Source: Zygnema circumcarinatum SAG 698-1b
Taxonomy: Eukaryota > Plantae > Zygnematophyceae
NCBI GenBank assembly: GCA_037447605.1
Contig: CM074814.1
Span: forward strand, 1,736,001 to 1,800,000
DNA length: 64,000 bases
Direction: 5' to 3'
The notes under the pieces were generated by a model. It saw nothing but the letters and a program-made list of their open reading frames with translations, had not been told where the DNA came from and searched no databases. Positions 8,901-64,000 of the stretch are shown piece after piece. The position numbers were made by a program, and so were the translations under genes. The number at the start of each line of letters is the position of its first letter. Position 1 is the first letter of the stretch.

Positions 8901-9267
8901 CAAATGAGGGCAGCTGCGACTCTGCCACAGACTTGGCAGCTGCTTCACTCCTCGCTGACTCACTATTTGATGTAGCAGTTCTCCTTCGTTTGCCAACTGT
9001 GACCTTCTCCTTTGGCTTCTCTCCTTGATGAGACCTCTGCTGCTGTGTGTGCACGCGCACAGGACCAAGAAGTCGGGACGCCTGCACGCTGATGTGACTC
9101 CCTTCAGGAGTCTCCACTTCATCAACAAGGTCAATTACACTCGGCGTGCAGCGCTGCTTTGGCACGACTGGGCTGTTCTCTTTTTCCAATAATCGCAAGT
9201 CGCTCTTTCCAGTAGGAGGGTTGTATTTGCTTATGGTTGGCCTCCCCCTGCTCCCCTGGACATTCAT
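2961..9267 (-). CDS. CHR19: SNF2-family chromatin remodeller, CHR19/ETL1 (SMARCAD1-like), multi-exon; start codon approximate
   Basis: Exons encode [121 protein letters not shown]; final exon [26 protein letters not shown] ends at TAA 2961-2963. Confidence 0.9.
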
Positions 9268-10218
9268 TGTCGAGCAGGCAAGGCAGCACAAGAGCAGCCA
9301 GCCTTTTGCAGACTGGCGGTGAAAGATGGATCAGAAGCCCGACCGCAGTCAGGCTATAGTCCAAAACTCGTCCTTTCCAATCACGCGTTGTGCACTAGAC
9401 GCGCGTGAAGAGTCATCCGAGCGTCAATTTCAGCGACGCGAATTTTATGTCAAATGGTTTAAATAGGATAAAAGCAGCCCGAGCATCCAGGTAGTGATGT
9501 AGCCTTAGCTGATATTTCACTGTCATCCAGAAAATGGAAGCCTGTGCTTGCCGACTGGCTTCAATATGGAGCGTTTGGCAGCCATGCCTCGGCTGGGGAC
9601 AGCCCTGGAGGGAGGGAGGGAGTCACAGCAGGCTCTCAATTTCTGTGAAGTACTAACTGCTTGCTGGGCTGCAGCCAAGAGAACATTTCCCTCTGCCCGG
9701 AGGAGCGGGCAGCCTGAAAACCCTGGCTCTTTCTCTCCTACTGCTCGAATCGGCGGGAAAAAACGCTTTTAAAAAATAATTTTAGAGTCACCTTAATATT
9801 TACTGAACTGGTCTCTAATGCCTGTCCGTTTCTGCGTGCCCTGCAGCTCCAATTCGGCGTCACATGCCGCAGTTGAAACAGCGTTCACCATTACTGCGCT
9901 AACGAAGGGTTCCGTGCAGCGAAACCACCCACCTTGTCCATGGGGGTGGTCTCATTTTGTCGTATGCGACTTCGGCTGTACGAAACCATAGTCGTGACCA
10001 CTTTCTGGACCTTAGCGACAGCCATCCGCCAACCACAAAGCGCCACGTACGCACTAGTCTGTACGTGGCGACCTGCCATTGGGAGATGCGCGACTACAGC
10101 ACGCAATGGAGAGGGGCGTGAAGAGGGAGGGGCTCCGAGAGCTTGCGGTTGAAACTTCGAACCTGCCGACCCGCCTGGGTGGGAGAAAGGGAGGGAGGAA
10201 GAGTGCGTGGCTGCGGCC

Positions 10219-23500: not shown

Positions 23501-26500
23501 CCATAACTTCAGATAGATGCTCCGGAAATTCTCAACAAGCAACTAACAGCAATATAAAGCACTCACTGCTGAGCTGAGGATCAAGAGTGAAGCGCTCTCT
23601 CGACCAATCACAAGAAGCTCCTAGACGACGAATTTGGCCAGCAATAGTTCCTCCATACCTACAACAAAACAAAGCTGCACTTCAGCAATTAGAAATTTAA
23701 CCAAAAGTTTAGTTTCTAACTTTAGGAAGGTACAAGCAGATGGCTGTTGAAAAGTACTCCTGACAAACATGAAACTCGAATGCAAAACTTACGTGCACTA
23801 CCTGCAGCAGCATTGAATGGAGACACTGCAGTCCGACAAGATAATGCTGTTGGATTATGGCGTTTGCAAGGTTTGTGCTCAACTTAAATCTAAAGACTCC
23901 TTATCGTCAGGTGAGAATAGGATCCGCGGAATACCAGAATTCAAACAAGGCATGCTTGAAAAGCTAGCAAATATGAACCAAACTTTGCCCGCAAAGCTCC
24001 TGTGCGAGAGAGGAGGGAGTTCTTCAAGGGCAAAATCGCAAATCTCACTCTTCTTTCCACTGCCACACACGTCGAAGGAACTCCTCGCGGCCGAGCTCTG
24101 TCCGTTTGATGCCCTGCGCAGAGAGCATCTTCTCCACCACAAGCTGCAGAGTCCACCCCTTCGTTCCCCCAAACGTCATTCAGTTGTACACCCGAGTCAT
24201 ACATAGACAGCACAAAGGAAGAGTGGAAATGACTCAAACATGCCAATGAGGAAGAAGACGAAAGTGAAGTTGAGGTTATGCAACAGAGGAGAGGCTACAA
24301 TCAGCAAAGAAGGAAAGAGCTTGTTAGTGAAATGAATAACTTACTAAAAAAAAACCAACTGCGTAAAGCCAAATAGACGACAACAAATGCAGGAAAAGGT
24401 GAGATAAGAGAAGATCCCCAGCATGTAACGACGATAGCCACCCAAGGAAGCATGATTTCAAACAACCATCACAACAAAAAGTCCTTTCCGTTACAGCCCA
24501 TTGTAAAGATGCAAGCACAAAGGACTGCCCTTACTGTGAACCAACTCGCAACGAGAGCACTTTGAGTATGTTGCAATTGCTTCATACCTTAGCCTACGTC
24601 ACAGGATAGGTTTTTTTTTTTTTTGGATAAGGTATTGACCACCAATGGCTGCTTCGTGGCTCAAAGGGAAGAGCGATTCTTGAAGTACTATAAAACTACC
24701 CTTTTTGAACATTTGGATTTTGGGCACTTATTTTTGTCCACTCTAATCGAATTAAATTGAACATGGGATTCGGAGACTTGAAATTTTCTTGTGTTGAAAA
24801 TCACAATTTTTTTTGTACAGTAAAGGAAAACTTTTTGAACAGTTGAACATGTTTTCTCGCAATTATTGTTTGTTCGGTTTAATTCATGAGATTCAAAGGT
24901 TTGGATTTTCTTAAAGTGAAATATTTGATCTTTTTCATAATTGCTTCAAATATTGAATCGGGTATGAAGTAGGTATTCAATTGAACAAGAAAGGATAACT
25001 ATTTGTTCAATACCAAGCCAATTCAAATGAAATTTGTCATGACATTCTGGCTAGAAACTACTGAGACTTGAGACATTGAAAATAAGTACTTAGTCAAATG
25101 TTCGAAAATATTAGTTTTACGGTAGCTCAGGAGTACTTGTACATGGTCAACCAGAGCTCCACATACATAGACTTCAGGGTTAGGGTTAGGGTTGAGGGTC
25201 GAGGGTTAGGGTTAGGGTCCCCCCCGCCCCAATGCAGCCAATGTTGCCAGCACCTGTGTGGCGATGCCGGCGTGGTCTGTCCCGGGAAGCCAAAGAGTGG
25301 GACGCCCCCGCATGCGCCAATGGCGAGCCATAATATCCTGCGCGCTCCCAGAGTTACCCTCTCCACTTCAGCATGGAAACAGCTTCAGTTGCCACTCAAT
25401 GCCATTAATGCTGCTACAAGGTGTAATTTCACAAGCAAAATTGTCTCAATGGGTTTATTGCAGTCCGCTGGATAAAGACTGTCCACCATAAGCATGCCAC
25501 ATCGATAAGATATGTATTTCGGCAGATAATATTGCCTGTAGCGTGATGTTCTGTCAGGACAGAGAAGAAGCTGACCTCAAGGGTAACAAACATGGCGTGA
25601 CCCATGTGGAGTGCGCCAGTCACATTTGGTGGCGGCATCGGGATTACAAAGGGCTCCCCTTCACTTTCAACTGAAGGGGAGAAGTATCCCTGCGCCTCCC
25701 ACCTGCTCCTCCCAGTACGCACTACGCGCCGTCAGTTGATGGCAACGCACCACTCAGCAATGTCATCTAGCGCCCGAACGTGAAAGCCTGTACATTGGCC
25801 GCTTCGACTTCAAGCCGGAAACGTGCAAATGTGTTACAACAAACTCGTTGCTAGAGGAAGAAAAATATATGCTCAGGTGTCAATTGGCTCTTCAACGACA
25901 AGAAGGAGGAGCCTACCATTGGTAAATGCTCTCCTCTTCCTCGAAGCTGAAGATTTTAGGTAGCTCTTCTCCTATCGGGAATGCAATTGCAGGGCCTGCT
26001 GCTCACCGGAAAAAAAAAAAATCAAAATGCATGTGAACTAAAGCTTTACAAGAGAGCCGGGCTATGCAATCGTTCAAGTCTCTGCAGACTGACATAATAT
26101 GGAAATCAAGCTAAAGTAAGCAATTAATATCAATTCATTATTAAAATACGATACGCTTACTGCCTGCATTGGACCATCTGTCAGACGTGCAGGGGAAGGT
26201 GACCGGGTTAAGCTCCTTCACCTGCTGTGGTCTGTCGCGTGGCTCCAGCAGCCATTTTCGCATGAACGCGTCTATCCCACCTACGAGCTCCCACTGCATT
26301 TTCTCTATTTGCACCCCACAGCAATTCTTTCGACCTAGAGCCAAATGATACGTCCCTGCAGATGCTTGTGGAGCCACAGCCATGGCTGCTGAGGGTTCTC
26401 TTGATAGAAAAAGAAGTGAGTATTGATCCTGCAGCCCTGGTGCGCTGTAATGCTCTGAGAGCCGGCCGAAGGAGGCGAGTGGGCCGACAGGCCCCTGCTT

Positions 26501-46964: not shown

Positions 46965-47910
46965 AGGAAAACACCTTTTTTGTCTACACACAGTCCTTTT
47001 TTCGTCGGGCAGGTTCTATTTTAGAAAAAAAAAGGATTAACAACGAAAATGCTTTTTTCATTCCTTTCTGGAATCGATACAAACCTTTTTCCGTCGGGCA
47101 GATTTTACCCCTGATTTTGTTTTTGGAGAGGAAAAAATCGGCTTGCCCAAATCCGCTGGGAGCGGAAGATCCGTTTGCCACGAGATCGTTCACGGGTGTG
47201 CGTTCTTCGCACGTGCGGTGAATCTCCGCCGTCAACTAACTCGCAGATCGCACCACACCAGATCATCGTTCGATCTGCAGTTGGGCTCGATCCCAGCGAA
47301 TGGCACGGGCCCACGTGTCCCGCCAAATCCGGCTCAAAGTGGGTCCATACAAAAACTGTACGGTCGCAGTTTCGAGGCAAGGCGAAATACCGTACATTGA
47401 ATGCCTGGACCAATTATAATTTGCCACGTGATTAAGGGTACACGTGGCAGATGGTGATTGGCTGTTAGTTGGCGAGCCGCCGCAGGCTGGCCAGTCAAGC
47501 TCATATTTTGTGGAGATCTCGGGCCGAGGGACGCGCGCTCTAGCACGTGCCAGCCGGCTTTGGTGGGGCACGTGGGCACGTGCCATTCGCTGGGACAGAG
47601 CCCAACTGCAGATCGAACGGTGATCTGCCGTGTTGCGATCTGCGAGTTAGTCGACGGGGGAGATTCAATGCACGTGTGAAGGACGCACACCCGCGAACGA
47701 TTCTCGTGGCGGACGGATCTTCCGCTTCAGCGGATTCGGGCAAGCCGATATTTTTTTTCACTCCAAAAAAAAAAATCAGGGGTAAAATCTGCCCGACGGA
47801 AAAAGGAGTGTGAATAGACAAAAAAGGTGTTAAAAAAGCATTTTTCGATTTTCTAAAATATAACCTGCCCGGCGAAAAAAGGTCTGTGTGTAGACAAAAA
47901 AGGTGTGAGA
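46965..47910. mobile_element. Non-autonomous foldback/MITE-like element (~370-bp imperfect inverted arms, ~200-bp spacer)
   Basis: Left arm ACACCTTTTTTGTCTACACACAG...GATCTGCAGTTGGGCTC..GGCACG matches the reverse complement of ~47545-47910; a degenerate partial copy lies at ~48550-48700. Confidence 0.7.
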
Positions 47911-48205: not shown

Positions 48206-49147
48206 CCTTCAATGGATTCAAAATTGTACGGTCGTACGTCTAGAGTTCTGGCCTTTTGGGTCCGGGCTTTTGGAAACAAAGCCGGCGCCACGTGGCATGT
48301 GACGTGTACCTACCATTCAAACATTATTGAAAACATGTTCAAATTGTGCTTCAAATTGTTGTGCTTTCTCCTTCGCTTTGTCACCGAACCACAGTCCAGC
48401 CAACAAACAAGCTTAGAGGGCTTGTGGGGCGTGTTTATGTGAAATAAAAAATGGAGAATGATACGCCCCCCCGTTTTTTTATATCCCGATATTTTTTTGC
48501 GAGAAAAAAATATCGCAAAAAATTATCGGCCTGCCTGAATCTGCTAAGTAGGACACGTGGCAGGCGGTGATTGGATTTCAGTTTTCCGCAGGCTGGCCGG
48601 TCCAGCTCATAGTTTTGCGGAGATCTCGGGCCGAGGGACGCTCGCAGTCGCACGTGCGAGCCTGACGGATCTTCCGCTCCAAGCGGATTCGGGCAGACCC
48701 AAACATATTTTTGTCTTTCAAAAGAAATTCAGGGGGGGGGGGGTTACTATTCTCCTAAAAAATGTGGTGTTTCATGACATCGGTGGTGGTGATGTTGTTG
48801 TTGTTGTTGCGCAAGTTATTGTTCATGAAGTTGTTGTTGTGCCGATTGCTGGAAATGTCGGTGGAAATGTCGGTCTCCTCATCCAACCTAAACATGTCGG
48901 CGCTAGCTGCAACTGTCGGTGGCCGCCCCAGGTCTCACCGCCAGAGAGGACGATACCAGAGATGCGCCAGGCGGTCTCACACGTGCGCGCGGCAGGCGTC
49001 GAGCTGTGGAGGTGGCTCCACGTGGCAGCGCGCCGTCCGTCCACGCCAGAGGAGCCAGCCGCAATCCTTATCGGCGGCTGGCGGAGGGGAGAGGAGGGGT
49101 CGCGCCCCCTCGCAGATCGCGGCGGGTGGGCCGTGACGGGGCTGAGG

Positions 49148-49365
49148 GGAGGGGAGGAGATCTGGGGTTGGGAGGGGAGGAGATCTGGGGTTGGGAGGGG
49201 AGGAGATCTGGGGTTGGGAGGGGAGGAGGAGATCTGGGGTTGGGAGGGGAGGAGATCTGGGGTTGGGAGGGGAGGAGATCTGGGGTTGGGAGGGGAGGAG
49301 ATCTGGGGTTGGGAGGGGAGGAGATCTGGGGTTGGGAGGGGAGGAGATCTGGGGTTGGGAGGGGA
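49148..49365 (+). repeat. 23-bp G-rich minisatellite, ~9 copies
   Basis: Unit GGGGAGGAGATCTGGGGTTGGGA in tandem; one copy has an extra GGA. Confidence 0.9.
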
Positions 49366-49857
49366 GAGGGAGAGGGAGAAGGGAGAGGGGACTGAGGGGA
49401 TGGAAGGGTAGGGGCGCGGGGCGGGCAGGGCAGGGCGCGGCATGGCATGGCATGAGGGCATGGATGGGGCCGCTCTGTGGGGGGCTGCGTGTGCGCCGAG
49501 GATGGCGGGAGTCAGGGGAGGGGGAGTGGAGGGGAGGGGAGGACTCAGGGGATGGGAGGAAGGGGAGAGGAGAGGGGACTCAGGGGAGGGGTGGACTAAG
49601 GGCGCGACACGGCATGGCATGGCATTGGGTTATGGGGGATGGGGTTATGGGGAGGGCGCTCTGCGGGTTCGTGCGTTTGCGCCGAGGATGGAGGAGTGCT
49701 CTCTCGAACTTTGCTTTTTCTATTTGCTTTTGGTCGTCGTCGTCGTGCTCGTGTTTACTTTTCTTTGCATTGGCACTTTTTCGGACCTTGTTGTGAAGAC
49801 GATGCTTGCGTGGAGGCGGTCAGCGTGTTAGAGCAGTGATGAGGATGAGAGATGAAG

Positions 49858-49930
49858 ATGAGTGTAGCTCCACTGGGAGAGCAGCGGTTCTGTTAACCGA
49901 AGGTTGAGGGTTCGAATCCCTCCACTCAAA
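49858..49930 (+). pseudogene. tRNA-Asn(GTT)-like relic or tRNA-derived SINE head
   Basis: Acceptor TGAGTG/CACTCA, D stem GCTC/GAGC, T arm GAGGG-TTCGAAT-CCCTC and CT-GTT-AA are present, but the anticodon stem is out of register for a 7-nt loop. Confidence 0.55.
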
Positions 49931-51060
49931 TCACGCCACCTCTGTCATTGCCATACATCTTTGATCTTGTTGGTGCATGCGTGCATGCAGGATGGGTCAG
50001 GTGATGTCATTTTCCGGCTAGAAAGTCCATGGTTATGCAACACCATTTTGCGCTTTGCCATGATCTGTCGGCTTTGTGGGGCGGATGAGTGTGCTTGCAA
50101 TCTTGGGTATGTTCATCTACTTTGTTTCTTTTCTTCTTTCTTTCTTTCTTGCTTGAAACATTTATAGTCATGTTAAAAGGACTCAGCGGTTGCCGTTGTG
50201 TGCACTGTAGTGCATGGTTGCGTGCTGCGTTCCATGGGACTTCATAGAACCGCCGGCTAGTGATGCGGTTAGACTTGTATGGGATCGATGTCGCTCGCAC
50301 GCTGTGCCATGCCATGCTGAGGCAGAGAAACTTAGGCGACGCGTGTGGGCCATTCGATTGTAGGATGCATAGTGTCGCAGGTCGCACAAAGGGGTGTTAC
50401 GTGGCGTTTGCGTGGCGATGCCACATCAGTACCACAACGGTGAGGCGATTCGTTGCGCCAATTAGGTAGAAATCGTACTTTGCAACCTCTTTTTTTTGCC
50501 CCTTTCCATGCGCTAAAATCTGTTGAACCAAAAGGTTTAGCGGAACGTTACACATGACACTAATATTTCACAATCAAAATTTCACTTTATTTTTTAAAGT
50601 AGATTTAATTTCCAAAATTTTCATTTTTATTGCCTCTAGTAGAGTTCTAGCTAAAAATTTGTTATGTCATGCAATAATTGGTGGTTTTGGCCCTTAAGAA
50701 AAAAATTGCTTGGAATTTTTTTTGTCTTTCTTGGACATTTTTTAACTGATTGTAATAAAATTTGATTTCTAGTTATTGGTTGGTTTTTTAGCATCCTCAA
50801 TATGATAGTAATTCTTGAATTGTTGGTGGGTGTATTTAGAGTATTTTGTCGTGTGTTAAAGTTTTTGCCGTGTTTGCTGATGTGGTGTTGTTGTGGACTT
50901 GGTAACGACTAAAGCGTGTTGCCATTGGTGGAGAGTGATGGAAGCGTGTCTCTATTGGTGGAGAGTGATGCGGGCCTCTAAAGGTGAGAAGGTACTTGTT
51001 GCTACTTTTGTTTTTCATTTTCTTTCTTTTTTTTCAACCCTAGGCAAGAGAGGATACTCA

Positions 51061-52080
51061 ATGAAAAGGAAAGCAGAAGGAAGTAGGGAAGAAGGGAGAC
51101 AAATGGAGAAGAAAACAAAAGTTGAAAAAGTTGAAGAGAAAGAGCCACAAAGAACAATACGTAAGTATTTAGGAGTACGAAAGTGGAAACATTGCTGGTC
51201 TGCAGGAATTAGGGTTCCAGCAGGGTTTGGGACAGAGGGCTGGTCTTCGGGACATAAGGTTCCAGCAGAGTTTTGTAAAGACGGGGAGAAAGGAAAGCGC
51301 CTTTGGCTTGGATCGTATGACAGTGCAGAAAAGGCAGCTCATGCATATGATGTGGCTGCCCGAGCTATAAAAGGATCGCTTGTTTGGACAAATTTTCCAG
51401 AGGAAGGAGTTTCTGTGGTGTATAAGGGCAGAGGAGGAGCAGTGTTGAGTGAGGGTGTCGACAATGCAAGATATAGAGACGAATTTAAGGCTTTGTTAAA
51501 TTCTTGCAAGAAGAGGCGAAGACGGAGTTCGCATAGAAAGGCCGGTGGAAGCAAGGTAGAGGTAGAGAAGGTAGAGATTCAGGTACTCGGTGAAAATTTT
51601 GACGAGCTAAAGAAGCTGGAGAAGGTGAATGTTAAGGTGGAGAAGGTAGAGATTAAAGTGCTTGGTGAAAGTTTTGACAAGCTAAAGAAGCTAAAGGAAG
51701 TGAAGGTTGAGGTGGTGAAGGAGAGGGGGAGGGAGAGGGAGAGTGTACAGGATACGAGTGAGAAATCGGTGTGTTTGGAATACGGCGTCTCGAGCTTGTC
51801 AGAGTGGGAGCATCGCCAAAGCTTGTCTGAGGAGGGACCCCTCTGGGAACTTTCGAGCAGTGAAGATTTTGGGGAACTGATGCGATGTGAGATGTCAAGC
51901 GATCCTTTCCGCAAGCTTCCGGAGGTGGATGAGAGCTGCCTCGGATTCATGACGGAAATCGACGACATTCTGCACCTCGACGGCTGGGGTGAAGACTTTT
52001 GGGATACTTCATCGAAATTCCCTGAGTTAAAGATTTTTAAATCCACTTTTGTGAGCTTAAGTTTCCTGTTCAACTTATGA
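51061..52080 (+). CDS. Intronless AP2/ERF-domain protein with a divergent, internally duplicated AP2 domain (ORF open from 50893; likely ATG at 51061)
   Basis: KYLGVRKWKHCWSAGIRVP...KRLWLGSYDSAEKAAHAYDVAARAIKGSLVWTNFP; basic RRRR stretch; acidic C-terminus. Confidence 0.8.
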   Translation: MKRKAEGSREEGRQMEKKTKVEKVEEKEPQRTIRKYLGVRKWKHCWSAGIRVPAGFGTEGWSSGHKVPAEFCKDGEKGKRLWLGSYDSAEKAAHAYDVAARAIKGSLVWTNFPEEGVSVVYKGRGGAVLSEGVDNARYRDEFKALLNSCKKRRRRSSHRKAGGSKVEVEKVEIQVLGENFDELKKLEKVNVKVEKVEIKVLGESFDKLKKLKEVKVEVVKERGRERESVQDTSEKSVCLEYGVSSLSEWEHRQSLSEEGPLWELSSSEDFGELMRCEMSSDPFRKLPEVDESCLGFMTEIDDILHLDGWGEDFWDTSSKFPELKIFKSTFVSLSFLFNL

Positions 52081-54753: not shown

Positions 54754-57548
54754 TAAAAGTTTCCGCACAAACAAAATAATAAGAAAAACAAATGAAGTCC
54801 TTGCAAAGCAGCGCTGGCTTTCCCCTGGTCTACTTTTCGATATATTAGAACATCGAGCTGACAAGAAGTACAACAATTGACTTTCTATCCCATTAGTTGA
54901 TCACAGCTCTCAATGAACATACCTCGCCCTCCTTTCCCTGAGCGCAGCACGTTGTCGAGAAATCCCCGCAACAAAGGTCTCTCGCCATTTAACATAGCTT
55001 GCAGTTCTGCCCCTTAGACATGTGCAGCTGTCATCCTTCCCTCGTCAACAAAAACGACTAAAACAAGGAAAGTGGCGTGGGGGTGGTAGAGGGAGTGGAA
55101 AAGACAACGGGAAGAGTGGGAGAGAGAGCGAGAGTGGGAAAGAGACGCCGGCTTGTCTATGAGCTCTACTTTTTAAGACAATCCTCCAAGCTGGCACATC
55201 TAACTGCCTCAATGCGAAACATAGAACCCCCTTCCCTCTCCCCGCTCCCCCTCCTCTCTCTCTCTCTCCCTCACTCCCCATATATCTCTCCCTTTCTCCT
55301 TCGCTTCTACATTAGCCATTTCCCTCGCACTTCCCACTCTCCCTTCTTCTCTCACCAGCCAGAGACTCCCTATCCATTCCCTCTCGTCCTCCCCTTTCTC
55401 CACACACATCAAAACCAAACCATGACAATTTCCATAACCCTGAAACCTACAAGCCCTAAGAGCATTCCACCCTAATGTTCCCCCCTCTCTCCCACTGTCC
55501 CTACTCTCACCCTGCCGGTGTCATATGCAACACGGTGTCGTATCTCCCTCCTCCTCTCCATGGTAGCCTACACCATCTCTCTCTCACCGAAAATCCGAAC
55601 CCTCTCCCTCCCCCTTCCCCAGCATAACTCTGCTGATATCCTCCTCCTTGCCCGTATTGAGCACCGCTCTGTCCATACCTGTAATTACTACCACTCTCAC
55701 TACCACTACCACTACTACTACTACCAGTACCAGTACTACTGCTATCACTACCACTGCTGCTATTGCTCGTTCTGCTCTGCTGTTGGCAGTGGCCAAGTGG
55801 CAGCTGTACGACCTCCCTCTCTATTGTACTGCGCTCGGCGGCTATCATCACTACAAACCTGCGGCATGTAAATGGCTATGCTGAATGCTTGAGATCGAAT
55901 AGAGATAAAAATCAAAATGGAAGTAAATTCATATCAGTACCTTCTGTGCCATCTATCTGTTCATGAACAATACGAACTGATGCATGGAAATGAATGCTCG
56001 TTTCCAAAAAGCTATCACTTTTTAACAGAAGTTACAATGTTCTGTATGGTCTTTTTATTCTTCTTTAAATTTTCAAGTTACAATATACGATAAGATTACC
56101 TCATACGCTTCTGCTAACTCTTTGAATCGCGCTCCAATTTTTCCCAAAACCGCTCATCTCCGTGCATGTGTCGGTCCGGGTGCCATTGGAGTGCTAGCTG
56201 GCGAAATGCTGTCTGTTGAAAGCCAACTTAAAAAAAGAAATTTAAAGGTGAAACTAAACGGAGATAACTGTTAACAATTATGCAAATTGTAATGCCAAGT
56301 TTTAGACACAAATAGGACCCGTGATTTATTTGAAATTGATGCTTTCCTATTTAACACTATTTACGCTCAGAAAATACCCCACTTGTTCAGCAAAATGCGA
56401 GTCTATACACTATCGCTTTCCTCTCCTCTCCCTCTCGCTCTCCCTCTACCCCTATCTCTCTCTCTCGCTCTCGCTCTCGCTCTCTCTCTCTCCCTCTCCC
56501 TTGTTCAGCAACATGCGAGCTCCTTCNNNNNNNNNNCTCCCCCCTCCCCCCTCTCCCCGTCCCCCTCCCCCTCTCCATATCCCTCTCCCTCTCTCCCTCT
56601 CTCTCACTCTCTTTCAATTCTTCTTCGATCTGTACACGCATGCCTACCACATGTCCGATCCCCTGCCTCCCACAGCTTGATCTCTTGAGAGGTCGCCTCG
56701 CGCTTCACCCCCAGCACGCGGTAGTATTCCATGGAGAGGCAGAGCAGCGAGGGAAACAGGGAGAGGCAGAGCGAGGGGGACAGGGAGAGACAGTGGAAGG
56801 GAAAGGGCGAGGGCGAGGGAGAGAGCGGGAGAATGAGAGAAGGGAAGATATAAGATACCGGCAGACGACGAGAGATAAAGGAGGAGACAGCGGGGAAGGG
56901 AGAAGGCAGGCCCTCAAGGGTAGGGCGGCAGCCATGGCTGCAGGAAGCTTGCCGCGCGGACGCTCAAAGGGACGCCTCACGAGAGGCGGAGTGGGAGCAA
57001 CCAAGGCGTGACGTAACTTGACGTGACGAGACGCTACTATGTGACGTTCTGTGACGTCCTTTAAATATATGACCAATAAACGCTCGCCATGTGGTCGTGA
57101 TTTGACTCTGACCTTTACCGGCGGTCACCGCGGTCGATGGCTGAGAGCCAGCGTGGCAATCGTATCCTATGTGGCAGAAGTGTGTTCACGTGACGTCTAC
57201 CGATTGGATAATTTAAAAGAGAGAGAAAAAGAGAGTTTAAAAATGATGCATACGTGGCTGCCACGTGGGCGACTCGTCGGCAAACCGCGCCATGGAACCC
57301 GTGAACGCGTCGTGCGGAACCCTTTTTCGCTCCATAGAGCCTGTAGATTTTTGCGCCCATGCCATGCCATACATGGGCCAAAAGCGGGTTTCGTTGACTC
57401 TTTCCATGTACATCAGTTCCAGTTCCCGTGAGAATTGCACGTTTTTTTTGTAACCGGATCTAGTTACCGCCGGAGTCCTCGCACATGGAACCGTTTTCCT
57501 GCTTGGTCCAAAAGTACCCGTCGGCCTGAAAGGGCTCCCTTGGTCCCC

Positions 57549-58286
57549 TTAGGACTTGGCACGAGTTAGAAGCATGCCAAAATTGCGTTCTTTTCGTGGA
57601 GTTGTTAGTAAGAACTCGAGCAAGTTCGAATGAACTGACGAATTAAACGAGCTTTGCAAGGCGTTAAGTCCGCGCACGAGGACTTGTCCGGGCGCGCACA
57701 AAGCGTAGCCGTTAGAGCCCATAATCCAGGCGCGTAAGACTTTGGTGCGTGAACCAAAGGTCAAACCCAGAACGCGCTCTTGTTCATTTAAGAGAGTGTT
57801 CAAGCGCCCTGTGTTAGCACAAGGAACACGTAGGATAGCGCCGTCCGTGTTTGCTTGCAGGATGTCGGAACAGGATGAGAGCGATTTGAGCACCTCCAAA
57901 AGGATTAGCTGCCCATTTATGGTGATGCTATAGTACAGCTTAGGATTGTAAAGCAAAGAACCAGAAGCATTCAAATTGCCAACAATCGAAAGCAGAAGCA
58001 CTTTGTATGTGATTGATCGTCTCCGAAGCTCAATCTCGGGTGAAGCTTTCCACTTCAAGCGCAAGTCCCGCCATTCGCCTAGCTTGGCCAATAAGCGCTT
58101 AGCATAGTCTTGTGAAGAACCGATTATGTGGAATTCGGAGCCCTTCTGCAACAACTGAATAAGCAGTTCAATAGAAAACGCGGTAATGTCGATATGAAAA
58201 ATAGCATTCTCTGTATCGCTTTCAAACTCAACAATAGCCTGCTTGTTTCTGTGGATAGAGTGCAGCCCACCTAGCCCTACCTTGAA
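57549..58286 (-). CDS. Phage-type PolB copy truncated at its 3' end (..TRAKS*) by the junction with flanking DNA; 5' end in gap
   Basis: Same sequence as the N-terminal part of the full copies; stop TAA is created at the junction 57549-57551. Confidence 0.7.
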   Translation of the reverse strand, partial: FKVGLGGLHSIHRNKQAIVEFESDTENAIFHIDITAFSIELLIQLLQKGSEFHIIGSSQDYAKRLLAKLGEWRDLRLKWKASPEIELRRRSITYKVLLLSIVGNLNASGSLLYNPKLYYSITINGQLILLEVLKSLSSCSDILQANTDGAILRVPCANTGRLNTLLNEQERVLGLTFGSRTKVLRAWIMGSNGYALCAPGQVLVRGLNALQSSFNSSVHSNLLEFLLTTPRKERNFGMLLTRAKS

Positions 58287-58298
58287 TNNNNNNNNNNA

Positions 58299-59411
58299 TT
58301 CAAGGTAGGGCTAGGTGGGCTGCACTCTATCCACAGAAACAAGCAGGCTATTGTTGAGTTTGAAAGCGATACAGAGAATGCTATTTTTCATATCGACATT
58401 ACCGCGTTTTCTATTGAACTGCTTATTCAGTTGTTGCAGAAGGGCTCCGAATTCCACATAATCGGTTCTTCACAAGACTATGCTAAGCGCTTATTGGCCA
58501 AGCTAGGCGAATGGCGGGACTTGCGCTTGAAGTGGAAAGCTTCACCCGAGATTGAGCTTCGGAGACGATCAATCACATACAAAGTGCTTCTGCTTTCGAT
58601 TGTTGGCAATTTGAATGCTTCTGGTTCTTTGCTTTACAATCCTAAGCTGTACTATAGCATCACCATAAATGGGCAGCTAATCCTTTTGGAGGTGCTCAAA
58701 TCGCTCTCATCCTGTTCCGACATCCTGCAAGCAAACACGGACGGCGCTATCCTACGTGTTCCTTGTGCTAACACAGGGCGCTTGAACACTCTCTTAAATG
58801 AACAAGAGCGCGTTCTGGGTTTGACCTTTGGTTCACGCACCAAAGTCTTACGCGCCTGGATTATGGGCTCTAACGGCTACGCTTTGTGCGCGCCCGGACA
58901 AGTCCTCGTGCGCGGACTTAACGCCTTGCAAAGCTCGTTTAATTCGTCAGTTCATTCGAACTTGCTCGAGTTCTTACTAACAACTCCACGAAAAGAACGC
59001 AATTTTGGCATGCTTCTAACTCGTGCCAAGTCCTATCGCAAGTTTTGGGAGTTTGCCTGTGCAAAACGCAGCGCGAGCGAGTTGCCAGTGGTTTACATGT
59101 GTACGCTAGCGCACCGGGATGACATTGTTGTCCTTGAAAAGAGCGGAAAAGGCAAATTCCTTTGTTTGGTTTCCAAAGGCTCGCCCTTGGGTAGAGTAGA
59201 ATATTTCAAGTACATCTCAACTCAGTACGACTTCAAAAGGCGAGAAATTGAGTATGAGAACACTTTGCTCAATTCGGTGCCGTGGCGTTGCGTGGAGGCG
59301 AAGCGCAAATACAAACAGAAGTATACTGCAGACTACCCGCTTGAATCGCAAGAGTCTTTGAGGAAGTTTCTCGAGTTGCTTGAAGATAGGGACAGCTGCG
59401 CAAGGGTCTAA
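58299..59411 (+). CDS. Divergent family B DNA polymerase, tailed-phage (crAss-like) type, polymerase domain; 5' end lost in gap (at least 370 aa)
   Basis: Frame is open back to the gap: FKVGLGGLHS..HIDITAFSIELL (motif A region), YKVLLLSIVGNL (motif B region), LLYNPKLYYSITINGQLILL, ILQANTDG (motif C); intronless. Confidence 0.8.
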   Translation, partial: FKVGLGGLHSIHRNKQAIVEFESDTENAIFHIDITAFSIELLIQLLQKGSEFHIIGSSQDYAKRLLAKLGEWRDLRLKWKASPEIELRRRSITYKVLLLSIVGNLNASGSLLYNPKLYYSITINGQLILLEVLKSLSSCSDILQANTDGAILRVPCANTGRLNTLLNEQERVLGLTFGSRTKVLRAWIMGSNGYALCAPGQVLVRGLNALQSSFNSSVHSNLLEFLLTTPRKERNFGMLLTRAKSYRKFWEFACAKRSASELPVVYMCTLAHRDDIVVLEKSGKGKFLCLVSKGSPLGRVEYFKYISTQYDFKRREIEYENTLLNSVPWRCVEAKRKYKQKYTADYPLESQESLRKFLELLEDRDSCARV

Positions 59412-59770
59412 CGTTCAAGGAAGAGAAGCATGGAGCAGTCGTCTCGAGTCGCGAACTTGCTCTTGATGACAGCGGTGTTAAAGCAGTGCTCACGATGCGC
59501 ACTTAAGGGCGAGGTTTTGCTCGTAAATAGAAAGCTTCGGAGCTTGTGGACTTTCTCAATAGGCACGGGATTCGGGAATACACGCATGGCAAGTGTTCGA
59601 CTAGGATTGACAGCAACTATTGTAAGAACCAGACGCAACAAGGTGTCGCTCCGGGGAGTTTTCCGCTTACGGCTGACGTATTTATGGTTCTCACCCTTTT
59701 CACTGAGTTGGACGCTGGCTTTGAACCAGAGCGGATTTAGTACAGAGTTTATAGAAACGCTTCCAGCCAT
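59408..59770 (-). CDS. Hypothetical 120-aa basic protein convergent with PolB (mirror copy 59987-60349 on +)
   Basis: ATG at 59770 just inside the hairpin; its TAG (59408-59410) overlaps the PolB TAA (59409-59411); no family recognised. Confidence 0.4.
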   Translation of the reverse strand: MAGSVSINSVLNPLWFKASVQLSEKGENHKYVSRKRKTPRSDTLLRLVLTIVAVNPSRTLAMRVFPNPVPIEKVHKLRSFLFTSKTSPLSAHREHCFNTAVIKSKFATRDDCSMLLFLER

Positions 59771-59771
59771 G

Positions 59772-59985
59772 AGGGCGACCAGAGGGCGACCATAGGGAGC
59801 TCGCGCGGCGCTCACTGCGTTCGCTTGTTTCACCGTGAGCTTCGCGAACAGGCGACCGAAGGGTGACGAAGTCACAGGCGACCGTTCGCTCGCGCGGCGC
59901 TCACTGCGTTCGCTTGTTTCACGGTGAAACAAGCGAACGCAGTGAGCGCCGCGCGAGCTCCCTATGGTCGCCCTCTGGTCGCCCT
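59772..59985. repeat. Imperfect GC-rich hairpin junction between inverted arms
   Basis: 80-bp asymmetric spacer 59839-59918 with GTGAC-GAA-GTCAC mini-hairpin; 35-bp segment repeated to form a local perfect hairpin 59888-59958; repeated GGCGACC motifs. Confidence 0.8.
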
Positions 59986-60345
59986 CATGGCTGGAAGCGT
60001 TTCTATAAACTCTGTACTAAATCCGCTCTGGTTCAAAGCCAGCGTCCAACTCAGTGAAAAGGGTGAGAACCATAAATACGTCAGCCGTAAGCGGAAAACT
60101 CCCCGGAGCGACACCTTGTTGCGTCTGGTTCTTACAATAGTTGCTGTCAATCCTAGTCGAACACTTGCCATGCGTGTATTCCCGAATCCCGTGCCTATTG
60201 AGAAAGTCCACAAGCTCCGAAGCTTTCTATTTACGAGCAAAACCTCGCCCTTAAGTGCGCATCGTGAGCACTGCTTTAACACCGCTGTCATCAAGAGCAA
60301 GTTCGCGACTCGAGACGACTGCTCCATGCTTCTCTTCCTTGAACG

Positions 60346-61458
60346 TTAGACCCTTGCGCAGCTGTCCCTATCTTCAAGCAACTCGAGAAACTTCCTCAAA
60401 GACTCTTGCGATTCAAGCGGGTAGTCTGCAGTATACTTCTGTTTGTATTTGCGCTTCGCCTCCACGCAACGCCACGGCACCGAATTGAGCAAAGTGTTCT
60501 CATACTCAATTTCTCGCCTTTTGAAGTCGTACTGAGTTGAGATGTACTTGAAATATTCTACTCTACCCAAGGGCGAGCCTTTGGAAACCAAACAAAGGAA
60601 TTTGCCTTTTCCGCTCTTTTCAAGGACAACAATGTCATCCCGGTGCGCTAGCGTACACATGTAAACCACTGGCAACTCGCTCGCGCTGCGTTTTGCACAG
60701 GCAAACTCCCAAAACTTGCGATAGGACTTGGCACGAGTTAGAAGCATGCCAAAATTGCGTTCTTTTCGTGGAGTTGTTAGTAAGAACTCGAGCAAGTTCG
60801 AATGAACTGACGAATTAAACGAGCTTTGCAAGGCGTTAAGTCCGCGCACGAGGACTTGTCCGGGCGCGCACAAAGCGTAGCCGTTAGAGCCCATAATCCA
60901 GGCGCGTAAGACTTTGGTGCGTGAACCAAAGGTCAAACCCAGAACGCGCTCTTGTTCATTTAAGAGAGTGTTCAAGCGCCCTGTGTTAGCACAAGGAACA
61001 CGTAGGATAGCGCCGTCCGTGTTTGCTTGCAGGATGTCGGAACAGGATGAGAGCGATTTGAGCACCTCCAAAAGGATTAGCTGCCCATTTATGGTGATGC
61101 TATAGTACAGCTTAGGATTGTAAAGCAAAGAACCAGAAGCATTCAAATTGCCAACAATCGAAAGCAGAAGCACTTTGTATGTGATTGATCGTCTCCGAAG
61201 CTCAATCTCGGGTGAAGCTTTCCACTTCAAGCGCAAGTCCCGCCATTCGCCTAGCTTGGCCAATAAGCGCTTAGCATAGTCTTGTGAAGAACCGATTATG
61301 TGGAATTCGGAGCCCTTCTGCAACAACTGAATAAGCAGTTCAATAGAAAACGCGGTAATGTCGATATGAAAAATAGCATTCTCTGTATCGCTTTCAAACT
61401 CAACAATAGCCTGCTTGTTTCTGTGGATAGAGTGCAGCCCACCTAGCCCTACCTTGAA
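60346..61458 (-). CDS. Phage-type PolB, inverted identical copy; 5' end in gap
   Basis: Identical translation to 58299-59411. Confidence 0.8.
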   Translation of the reverse strand, partial: FKVGLGGLHSIHRNKQAIVEFESDTENAIFHIDITAFSIELLIQLLQKGSEFHIIGSSQDYAKRLLAKLGEWRDLRLKWKASPEIELRRRSITYKVLLLSIVGNLNASGSLLYNPKLYYSITINGQLILLEVLKSLSSCSDILQANTDGAILRVPCANTGRLNTLLNEQERVLGLTFGSRTKVLRAWIMGSNGYALCAPGQVLVRGLNALQSSFNSSVHSNLLEFLLTTPRKERNFGMLLTRAKSYRKFWEFACAKRSASELPVVYMCTLAHRDDIVVLEKSGKGKFLCLVSKGSPLGRVEYFKYISTQYDFKRREIEYENTLLNSVPWRCVEAKRKYKQKYTADYPLESQESLRKFLELLEDRDSCARV

Positions 61459-61470
61459 TNNNNNNNNNNA

Positions 61471-62583
61471 TTCAAGGTAGGGCTAGGTGGGCTGCACTCT
61501 ATCCACAGAAACAAGCAGGCTATTGTTGAGTTTGAAAGCGATACAGAGAATGCTATTTTTCATATCGACATTACCGCGTTTTCTATTGAACTGCTTATTC
61601 AGTTGTTGCAGAAGGGCTCCGAATTCCACATAATCGGTTCTTCACAAGACTATGCTAAGCGCTTATTGGCCAAGCTAGGCGAATGGCGGGACTTGCGCTT
61701 GAAGTGGAAAGCTTCACCCGAGATTGAGCTTCGGAGACGATCAATCACATACAAAGTGCTTCTGCTTTCGATTGTTGGCAATTTGAATGCTTCTGGTTCT
61801 TTGCTTTACAATCCTAAGCTGTACTATAGCATCACCATAAATGGGCAGCTAATCCTTTTGGAGGTGCTCAAATCGCTCTCATCCTGTTCCGACATCCTGC
61901 AAGCAAACACGGACGGCGCTATCCTACGTGTTCCTTGTGCTAACACAGGGCGCTTGAACACTCTCTTAAATGAACAAGAGCGCGTTCTGGGTTTGACCTT
62001 TGGTTCACGCACCAAAGTCTTACGCGCCTGGATTATGGGCTCTAACGGCTACGCTTTGTGCGCGCCCGGACAAGTCCTCGTGCGCGGACTTAACGCCTTG
62101 CAAAGCTCGTTTAATTCGTCAGTTCATTCGAACTTGCTCGAGTTCTTACTAACAACTCCACGAAAAGAACGCAATTTTGGCATGCTTCTAACTCGTGCCA
62201 AGTCCTATCGCAAGTTTTGGGAGTTTGCCTGTGCAAAACGCAGCGCGAGCGAGTTGCCAGTGGTTTACATGTGTACGCTAGCGCACCGGGATGACATTGT
62301 TGTCCTTGAAAAGAGCGGAAAAGGCAAATTCCTTTGTTTGGTTTCCAAAGGCTCGCCCTTGGGTAGAGTAGAATATTTCAAGTACATCTCAACTCAGTAC
62401 GACTTCAAAAGGCGAGAAATTGAGTATGAGAACACTTTGCTCAATTCGGTGCCGTGGCGTTGCGTGGAGGCGAAGCGCAAATACAAACAGAAGTATACTG
62501 CAGACTACCCGCTTGAATCGCAAGAGTCTTTGAGGAAGTTTCTCGAGTTGCTTGAAGATAGGGACAGCTGCGCAAGGGTCTAA
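61471..62583 (+). CDS. Phage-type PolB, identical copy; 5' end in gap
   Basis: Identical translation to 58299-59411. Confidence 0.8.
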   Translation, partial: FKVGLGGLHSIHRNKQAIVEFESDTENAIFHIDITAFSIELLIQLLQKGSEFHIIGSSQDYAKRLLAKLGEWRDLRLKWKASPEIELRRRSITYKVLLLSIVGNLNASGSLLYNPKLYYSITINGQLILLEVLKSLSSCSDILQANTDGAILRVPCANTGRLNTLLNEQERVLGLTFGSRTKVLRAWIMGSNGYALCAPGQVLVRGLNALQSSFNSSVHSNLLEFLLTTPRKERNFGMLLTRAKSYRKFWEFACAKRSASELPVVYMCTLAHRDDIVVLEKSGKGKFLCLVSKGSPLGRVEYFKYISTQYDFKRREIEYENTLLNSVPWRCVEAKRKYKQKYTADYPLESQESLRKFLELLEDRDSCARV

Positions 62584-62942
62584 CGTTCAAGGAAGAGAAG
62601 CATGGAGCAGTCGTCTCGAGTCGCGAACTTGCTCTTGATGACAGCGGTGTTAAAGCAGTGCTCACGATGCGCACTTAAGGGCGAGGTTTTGCTCGTAAAT
62701 AGAAAGCTTCGGAGCTTGTGGACTTTCTCAATAGGCACGGGATTCGGGAATACACGCATGGCAAGTGTTCGACTAGGATTGACAGCAACTATTGTAAGAA
62801 CCAGACGCAACAAGGTGTCGCTCCGGGGAGTTTTCCGCTTACGGCTGACGTATTTATGGTTCTCACCCTTTTCACTGAGTTGGACGCTGGCTTTGAACCA
62901 GAGCGGATTTAGTACAGAGTTTATAGAAACGCTTCCAGCCAT
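62580..62942 (-). CDS. Hypothetical 120-aa protein, second unit (mirror copy 63159-63521 on +)
   Basis: Identical to 59408-59770. Confidence 0.4.
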   Translation of the reverse strand: MAGSVSINSVLNPLWFKASVQLSEKGENHKYVSRKRKTPRSDTLLRLVLTIVAVNPSRTLAMRVFPNPVPIEKVHKLRSFLFTSKTSPLSAHREHCFNTAVIKSKFATRDDCSMLLFLER

Positions 62943-62943
62943 G

Positions 62944-63157
62944 AGGGCGACCAGAGGGCGACCATAGGGAGCTCGCGCGGCGCTCACTGCGTTCGCTTGT
63001 TTCACCGTGAGCTTCGCGAACAGGCGACCGAAGGGTGACGAAGTCACAGGCGACCGTTCGCTCGCGCGGCGCTCACTGCGTTCGCTTGTTTCACGGTGAA
63101 ACAAGCGAACGCAGTGAGCGCCGCGCGAGCTCCCTATGGTCGCCCTCTGGTCGCCCT
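62944..63157. repeat. Second hairpin junction, same orientation as the first
   Basis: Sequence identical to 59772-59985 at offset 3172. Confidence 0.8.
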
Positions 63158-63517
63158 CATGGCTGGAAGCGTTTCTATAAACTCTGTACTAAATCCGCTC
63201 TGGTTCAAAGCCAGCGTCCAACTCAGTGAAAAGGGTGAGAACCATAAATACGTCAGCCGTAAGCGGAAAACTCCCCGGAGCGACACCTTGTTGCGTCTGG
63301 TTCTTACAATAGTTGCTGTCAATCCTAGTCGAACACTTGCCATGCGTGTATTCCCGAATCCCGTGCCTATTGAGAAAGTCCACAAGCTCCGAAGCTTTCT
63401 ATTTACGAGCAAAACCTCGCCCTTAAGTGCGCATCGTGAGCACTGCTTTAACACCGCTGTCATCAAGAGCAAGTTCGCGACTCGAGACGACTGCTCCATG
63501 CTTCTCTTCCTTGAACG

Positions 63518-64000
63518 TTAGACCCTTGCGCAGCTGTCCCTATCTTCAAGCAACTCGAGAAACTTCCTCAAAGACTCTTGCGATTCAAGCGGGTAGTCTG
63601 CAGTATACTTCTGTTTGTATTTGCGCTTCGCCTCCACGCAACGCCACGGCACCGAATTGAGCAAAGTGTTCTCATACTCAATTTCTCGCCTTTTGAAGTC
63701 GTACTGAGTTGAGATGTACTTGAAATATTCTACTCTACCCAAGGGCGAGCCTTTGGAAACCAAACAAAGGAATTTGCCTTTTCCGCTCTTTTCAAGGACA
63801 ACAATGTCATCCCGGTGCGCTAGCGTACACATGTAAACCACTGGCAACTCGCTCGCGCTGCGTTTTGCACAGGCAAACTCCCAAAACTTGCGATAGGACT
63901 TGGCACGAGTTAGAAGCATGCCAAAATTGCGTTCTTTTCGTGGAGTTGTTAGTAAGAACTCGAGCAAGTTCGAATGAACTGACGAATTAAACGAGCTTTG
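63518..64000 (-). CDS. Phage-type PolB, inverted copy running off the window end
   Basis: C-terminal part identical to the other copies. Confidence 0.75.
   Translation of the reverse strand, partial: QSSFNSSVHSNLLEFLLTTPRKERNFGMLLTRAKSYRKFWEFACAKRSASELPVVYMCTLAHRDDIVVLEKSGKGKFLCLVSKGSPLGRVEYFKYISTQYDFKRREIEYENTLLNSVPWRCVEAKRKYKQKYTADYPLESQESLRKFLELLEDRDSCARV

Follow-up and report, generated by a model that had tools for sequence, protein, structure and literature searches.

The polymerase array and its read support

The 64,000-nucleotide stretch analysed here (the window; contig CM074814.1, positions 1,736,001 to 1,800,000, of the Zygnema circumcarinatum SAG 698-1b assembly) ends in five copies of an intronless open reading frame (ORF) related to the family B DNA polymerases (PolB) of tailed phages. 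An earlier sequence-only reading had seen here a self-replicating, hairpin-ended element lying in a plant nuclear scaffold. Our analysis moderately favours another explanation, in which the array is an artefact and the copy that it multiplies is a relic polymerase in high-copy, probably organellar DNA, misplaced in a nuclear scaffold. The features of the array are as follows.

57549..57550: join of nuclear flank and element without a gap, likely a false join from gap filling
57550..58287, minus strand: partial duplicate of the arm (first ~246 ORF codons), matching the final 738 bp of 58298-61459 without a difference
58288..58297: 10-N scaffold gap; the real sequence upstream of the ORF continues here and is absent from the window
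58299..58922, plus strand: tailed-phage-type PolB palm and fingers, with GGLH, a degenerate motif A (DITAFS), the motif B lysine, SITINGQL and motif C (NTDG)
59160..59740, plus strand: decayed C-terminus of a primer-independent (piPolB-type) PolB, fused in frame to the palm until the stop at 59409-59411
59771..59887, plus strand: GC-rich repeat cluster with GGCGACC words at 59774, 59785, 59851 and 59877 and the first copy of the 35-bp arm at 59799-59833
59888..59958: 71-bp perfect palindrome with 35-bp arms around 59923, belonging to a dispersed repeat family and likely the fold-back point of the assembler
59959..61459, minus strand: mirror arm with the ORF at 60346-61459, a perfect reverse complement of the left arm and likely an artefactual copy
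61460..64000: second 10-N gap (61460-61469) and second identical placement of the same contig (100% identity)

The polymerase frame is found at 57550-58287 (minus strand, cut), 58299-59411 (plus), 60346-61459 (minus), 61470-62583 (plus) and 63518-64000 (minus, cut by the end of the window), and the five copies are 100% identical. The unit at 58298-61459 is a 3,162-bp palindrome whose perfect 1,541-bp arms, each with the frame open for 370 codons from the gap to the stop at 59409-59411, enclose an unpaired 80-bp middle containing half of the 71-bp palindrome (fold z-score -23.6). Its order there is arm end, a 35-bp segment (P), spacer, P, one base, P reversed and mirror arm. Two of the three 10-N gaps in the window (58288-58297 and 61460-61469) flank the unit, which starts again at 61470; since the head-to-head joints are these scaffold gaps, the array is one contig placed repeatedly (three times). 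The alternately inverted, identical, intronless copies first described are thus there in the assembled sequence and are not supported as a real molecule, and the five-copy array is very probably an assembly artefact.

Sequencing runs give an independent view of the locus. The stretch is present in 20 of the 24 runs listed, from eight studies and under a single organism label throughout, 11 runs holding at least half of its words; five of the listed runs may be the source reads of the assembly. No RNA run is among the listed holders, an absence that has no bearing on expression. Six runs (X1, X4, X6, X7, X8 and X12) were compared with the stretch as unitigs, and every negative statement about contigs below concerns the matches listed, from a filtered contig set, and is hence not absolute. 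Contigs of the ORF reached depths of 8,500-9,200 in X1, 6,100-6,800 in X4 and 4,700-5,200 in X6 (5,000-5,200 over the region 56600-58287), the flank contigs in that region standing at 26-52, 54-68 and 22-29, respectively. A depth comparison, suggested with the first reading for single-copy genes and made here against the flank, gives the ORF a depth ratio of ~100-360 in three of four runs, and of ~1 in the fourth (X7).

No contig bridging the junction 57549/57550 was found among the matches listed in any of the four runs, and at 57550 the contigs of all four carry on as element sequence. The junction bin had a depth of 2865.9 against 2865.9 expected without a bridge in X1 and 2061.5 against 2061.6 in X4, where a bridge at depth 25 would add ~21. 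As non-bridging contigs account wholly for this depth in both runs, integration in nuclear DNA is unsupported; of the two states first proposed, endogenised or extrachromosomal, the depth speaks for a high-copy element outside the nuclear chromosome. At the gap 58288-58297, contigs run unbroken for 844 nt (X1), 619 nt (X4) and 2,072 nt (X6, on a 2,527-nt contig) beyond it, so the molecule does not contain the head-to-head joint, and the element extends further than can be seen in the window. Array and dimer junction had also been read as replication intermediates, a reading left without support by identical copies, N gaps and contigs that pass the gap. Across the compared runs the ORF part has one differing letter only, in X7.

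The palindrome behaves as a member of a dispersed repeat family. The segment 59780-61459 matched 4,450 contigs in X6 and 3,746 in X1, with nearly all depth on 59780-60003; summed depth of the repeat was ~443 times (X6) and ~325 times (X1) that of the ORF, an upper bound on copies since overlapping unitigs count twice. The variant joints at the repeat in X1 each have a depth of 8,000-9,500, equal to that of the ORF, and in X8 and X12 contigs of 790-2,246 nt show unlike exits that extend at least 255 nt into different unique sequence. Contigs of the ORF end at 59957 and 59975, and no contig among the matches listed spans the hairpin turn in any of four runs. The palindrome occurs on thousands of short contigs, in many variants and with unlike exits, and is not confined to molecule ends. 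In Rfam it reached no family at the gathering score (generic miRNA-hairpin matches only), a 24-nt motif of it had no match in viral contigs, and the window holds no telomere resolvase gene. The hairpin junction is thus real as a structured palindrome of the assembly and unsupported as a unique telomere; being part of a dispersed GC-rich family, it points to an organelle chromosome instead.

Such a repeat would suffice to build the array. With P present twice, a walk through the assembly graph that enters the palindrome can emerge on the opposite strand and retrace its path. This would give exactly the contig observed, which, having two identical ends, would link to itself and be concatenated. 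We flag the 6.5 kb as a probable false insertion in the assembly, and note that a high-copy palindrome can yield a convincing but likely unreal "hairpin replicon".

The polymerase frame and its relatives

The ORF corresponds to a database protein, P0001, which starts 27 residues further upstream; those residues are absent from the window, and the N-terminal exonuclease domain expected of such a polymerase would lie beyond the N gap. In a profile search ORF residues 1-178 match PHROG 1252 (E 8e-19), and the crAss-like phages cr273_1 and cr272_1 are 32% identical (E 2e-9). The AlphaFold model of P0001 has pLDDT mostly >80 at residues 21-235 and <50 at residues 263-378, and its best Foldseek E value is 4e-8, to family B polymerases. 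The motifs GGLH, LYNP..SITINGQL and NTDG are all present as first noted, and the assignment built on them, to a tailed-phage-type and not to a protein-primed PolB, is borne out: the core matches PHROG 1252, and Pfam at E 0.1 gave no family for any of nine window frames, the ORF included, with no pPolB (PF03175) core in it. A PDB sequence search with the ORF gave a single match, by chance. Residues D60 (motif A), K122 (motif B) and N173-G176 (NTDG) of P0001 agree with all 21 relatives. In the rest of motif A, P0001 has Ala63 and Ser65 at positions where the relatives have Ser (20 of 21) and Tyr (21 of 21; DxxS[FY]Y). We take this tyrosine to be the "steric gate", and in an active enzyme its loss could permit ribonucleotide addition.

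Homologue searches separate the frame into two parts. Among 1.84 billion representatives, 403 homologues were found at E 0.001, the best after P0001 itself being P0017 (1,760 aa, E 1e-17, 35% identity), and a second set (P0021, P0042, P0072, P0084 and P0106) matches residues 269-366 only. The latter form a tight piPolB-type group with a long shared C-terminal extension. PF03175 is found in two of the five, and the three that reach the motif carry SxTTDG, a mark of piPolB according to the available part of PMC5695915; P0084 also matches Fusobacterium and Staphylococcus plasmid polymerases. By tblastn the tail is 40-53% identical to P0021 in two frames (E 1e-51), with P0042, P0084 and P0106 alike, and the similarity continues for ~330 bp past the ORF stop, to 59740. 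Four breaks interrupt it: the stop at 59409-59411, a frameshift near 59510, and stops at 59528-59530 and 59738-59740. RNA editing was considered as a repair of the tail and dropped, a frameshift being beyond its reach. The phage-type and piPolB-type families align poorly with each other (hhalign probability 12.6).

In most rows similarity to the PolB-primase clade described below ends by residue ~255-280, where the piPolB tail follows; the C-terminal primase-polymerase domain of that clade, with its DxD, is absent from the ORF. Of piPolB there is a broken C-terminal piece only, devoid of the piPolB catalytic motifs, and no intact ORF combines SxTTDG with TPR1 and TPR2. From sequence comparison, the ORF is likely a decayed fusion of two polymerases. 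Given the broken tail and the degenerate motif A, self-replication by this copy, as first proposed, is doubtful, and the copy probably no longer replicates anything. At a separate locus, L014 (4037-6110), a phage polymerase is split into separate exonuclease and polymerase genes, so a separate palm gene that begins at the P0001 start point can occur naturally.

A tree had been suggested as a check of the first assignment, and it places the window protein in a separate clade apart from phage rows. A quick tree built from 149 palm rows, 20 of the 169 proteins being left out because they lacked both anchor motifs, puts P0001 in a 30-row clade with SH-aLRT 94. A 61-row tree, made of 27 clade rows plus L015, 28 other rows picked at random and five viral loci, groups the window protein with a clade of 27 rows at 89/96 and no phage rows inside, labels being liable to shift one node on rerooting.

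Named members of this clade are L015, P0017, P0024, P0025 and P0031. The long ones (850-2,000 aa) are encoded on contigs that mostly span 3-18 kb, and their residue usage is AT-rich; common to them are a DxD domain (pattern in 12 of 14 rows) and a C-terminal Cys/His motif. The contigs of P0017, P0018, P0022, P0023 and the piPolB-type P0021 measure 18-138 kb. In the model of L015 the DxD domain matches AEP primase-polymerases, namely pRN1 ORF904 (Z 9.2 and 9.0, root-mean-square deviation 4.2, 169 residues aligned) and NrS-1 (Z 5.3); the top 12 Foldseek rows are all AEP primase-polymerases, none at E 0.001. P0017 and P0024 (1,700-2,000 aa) join PolB, primase-like and SF2-type helicase parts. Fusions of PolB, primase-like domain and SF2 helicase are also seen in P0052, P0069 and P0092, outside the clade, and hence in more than one branch of the tree. 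Going by these models, the fused AEP primase of intact relatives is predicted to prime the PolB, which together with the SF2 helicase of some would make a one-gene replisome.

L015 is the best intact model of the family and the one clade member among 78 metagenome stretches returned by a clade alignment scan. Its 5,575 bp (23% GC) encode a 298-aa ORF, with a weak Atlas lead to Integrase_2 (0.88) and no Pfam or PHROG match, and a 1,409-aa PolB-primase fusion. Each end breaks off at the midpoint of one and the same palindrome, leaving a 45-bp exact terminal inverted repeat, and there is an inner full copy of the palindrome at 116-215 as well as 29-bp repeats. L015 is a small, self-contained replicon, either circular or hairpin-ended, and the idea of a hairpin-ended replicon may fit the family better than it fits the copy in the window.

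Scans for further relatives added little. Exact-peptide scans with P0001 found none in viral or metagenome contigs, and pattern-limited scans found neither the clade nor the piPolB tail in 185,579 prokaryote genomes, nor the tail in viral contigs. The 14 and 80 viral loci kept in the clade scans were rejected as ordinary phage polymerases by the clade profile; L015 apart, none of the best 25 rows matched beyond profile position ~573. Longer homologues of P0001 were not found in searches that left 649-695 aa uncovered and in one case took only proteins of at least 1,641 aa, a result that is hence uninformative. A literature search by title and start of abstract, with most subscription papers outside it, found no description of this PolB-primase family, which seems undescribed.

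Origin of the locus

We regard a place on an organelle chromosome as probable for the locus. In X1 and X6 the ORF has the depth of many other repeat-bearing loci of an organelle-size molecule, which is not so in X8 and X12. At this depth a 200-kb molecule would take 1.8 Gb of reads and a 4-Mb genome ~37 Gb, compared with the 2-4 Gb that the nuclear genome takes. A GC content of 49% and the piPolB ancestry favour the mitochondrion, and the depth fits the plastid as well. The molecule at organelle-like depth would carry many such palindromes. A plasmid-like element with a PolB-primase fusion and a pipolin-like element may each have inserted into it; recombination would then have fused the tail of the second onto the palm of the first, with loss of the thumb end and the primase, and the chimeric locus would now be copied passively by the organelle's own replication.

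Several observations weigh against this account. No organelle gene in the window links the ORF to an organelle, and six of the 24 listed runs were compared. In X7 the ORF depth (5.8-7.4, patchy cover) is close to that of the flank (5.7), and in X8 and X12 the ORF contigs stand at 4-16 when other repeat-flanking contigs stand at 56-87, a split at odds with one molecule if these are DNA runs and compatible with RNA runs or a separate molecule. Since any palindrome makes a unitig fold back, a real closed end would look alike. Motif C and the motif B lysine are intact, and the 370 codons hold no break against four in the next 110, with a chance of 0.003 if decay were even and of 0.11 if only the piPolB part is counted. 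The open frame may reflect selection on the ORF; different ages of the two parts explain it equally well.

The best surviving rival, an unlikely one, takes up that last point: the chimeric ORF would be kept by selection as an active polymerase, exonuclease-less or altered, at an organelle locus or on a separate organellar plasmid. The open codons, the conserved aspartates of motifs A and C with the motif B lysine, and the single differing letter across runs agree with it. Against it, the tail is a foreign, broken fragment, unfolded in the model, a palm that arrived recently would account for the open frame just as well, and sameness across runs may just reflect one strain.

Slightly less credible is the model of the first reading, a linear plasmid that replicates autonomously and whose end at 59923 is a covalently closed hairpin. 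The palindromic contig would then represent this end or a dimer junction, the dispersed repeats being copies shed to the organelle genome or ends of several molecules. Raised copy number, an ORF depth unlike that of other repeat loci in X7, X8 and X12, and four GGCGACC words with a doubled arm beside a perfect palindrome, resembling an origin or telomere, would suit it, as would L015 with both ends at the centre of one palindrome; those ends are equally compatible with a circle opened at the palindrome. It has to contend with a palindrome at hundreds of copy-equivalents and many exits at ORF depth, with a polymerase that has lost motif A residues and the primase domain, and with a window devoid of a resolvase gene.

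A plasmid or phage of a bacterium living with the cultured plant is improbable. The polymerase is of phage type, with weak matches to 190 phage records and four bacterial plasmids, among them CP113870.1 (H22) of the endosymbiont Ca. Megaera polyxenophila (distant PolB, 26%, E 4e-7), and GC-rich palindromes occur in bacteria too. Every match is below 40% identity, though, the pattern-limited scans of prokaryote genomes gave no relative of clade or tail, and a repeat-rich bacterial chromosome is impossible at such depth. The single organism label in all 20 holder runs also disposes of stray contamination, which had been named as a way in which the first reading could fail. The Megaera plasmid PolB itself marks a possible route into organelles. 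A real nuclear insertion, organelle-derived or viral and amplified as an inverted array, is the least probable. The gapless left junction of the assembly and the X7 depth ratio of ~1 speak for it; against it are the missing bridge among the matches listed, the exact depth accounting in X1 and X4, identical copies separated by N gaps and a depth far beyond five copies in three of four runs.

For the flank itself, the first reading as plant nuclear scaffold is supported. It matches intron-split SNF2/helicase exons, EXPERA, AP2 and TGT (3 of 14 and 1 of 14 frames in one set, 2 of 7 in another) and has a tRNA-Thr gene (TGT) at 49858-49930, which supports intron-rich green-plant nuclear DNA. A long frame at 50881-52080, with an AP2-domain match (E 8e-6) below the curated cut-off, is probably a degenerate AP2/ERF gene. 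The inverted repeat at 46971-47906 (364-bp arms, 84% identity), to which pieces at 48586-48662 are related, resembles a non-autonomous DNA transposon. There are also a short TTAGGG-like repeat run inside the scaffold at 25177-25218 and a 23-bp G-rich tandem repeat at 49144-49373.

Comparison with known systems

Closest to the palm are the tailed-phage PolBs of PHROG 1252 (crAss-like, BcepB1A, Vibrio, Xanthomonas and Rhizobium phages), which share GGLH, TxNGQL and NTDG at 22-32% palm identity, and the ESM Atlas look-alikes of the window protein are mostly Uroviricota. Unlike them, the window protein belongs to a separate clade, the long members of which add an AEP primase-polymerase and in some cases an SF2 helicase; its motif A is degenerate, and no phage genes lie nearby. 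Hairpin-ended linear replicons are known from phage N15, Borrelia plasmids and the hairpin chromosomes of Cladophorales. The palindromic junction of the assembly and the palindromic ends of L015 recall them, whereas the palindrome in the window recurs beyond a single end, and no resolvase gene lies in the window. Orton et al. (2020) reportedly described a 50-kb mobile region in Zygnema mitochondrial DNA (mtDNA) with polymerase and primase ORFs, which may be the same kind of ORF.

The tail compares with pipolins and piPolB, including those of pCRY1-like circular mitochondrial plasmids, on which the available part of PMC5695915 places piPolB: it is 37-53% identical to the C-termini of SxTTDG-type PolBs, but the window holds only a broken C-terminal piece. 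Foreign replication genes in high-copy green-plant DNA beside dispersed repeats have counterparts, of plasmid and phage derivation, in algal organelles. From the portions of these papers available, the Oedogonium plastid genome has an integrase and a plasmid-type dpoB closest to the kalilo linear-plasmid polymerase (PMC2442088), Bryopsidales plastids have ORFs for a non-standard primase and PolA (PMC5888179), and streptophyte algal mtDNA has integrase ORFs (PMC3814193). Short, intergenic, many-copy palindromes that break assemblies are likewise described, in the text available, as LIMP palindromes dispersed in Lobosphaera mtDNA (PMC4524435) and as stem-loop repeats in Chlorokybus mtDNA (PMC1894977), with sequences that differ from the window palindrome. 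In the available parts of the organelle papers (PMC5888179, PMC2442088, PMC7902510, PMC5695915, PMC1894977, PMC3814193 and PMC4524435) the polymerases are PolA, kalilo-like PolB or piPolB, with none of PHROG 1252 type.

The lasting value of the locus lies in the PolB-primase(-helicase) clade and L015. A bolder possibility, which we hold only tentatively, is that algal organelles harbour a class of small self-replicating elements with ends or origins that are palindromic, as in L015, and a single PolB-AEP primase(-SF2 helicase) protein of tailed-phage PolB descent. The window would then hold a still extrachromosomal, hairpin-ended member or a fresh integrated relic whose primase was swapped for a pipolin polymerase tail. 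If so, these would be the RNA/DNA-primed counterpart of invertrons and pipolins in eukaryotic organelles; as organellar plasmids, they would represent a new way for phage replication genes to enter eukaryotes, and a replisome condensed into one protein. Beside the protein-primed and primer-independent polymerases known from organellar plasmids, the tailed-phage-type PolB would stand as a third kind in high-copy green-plant DNA.

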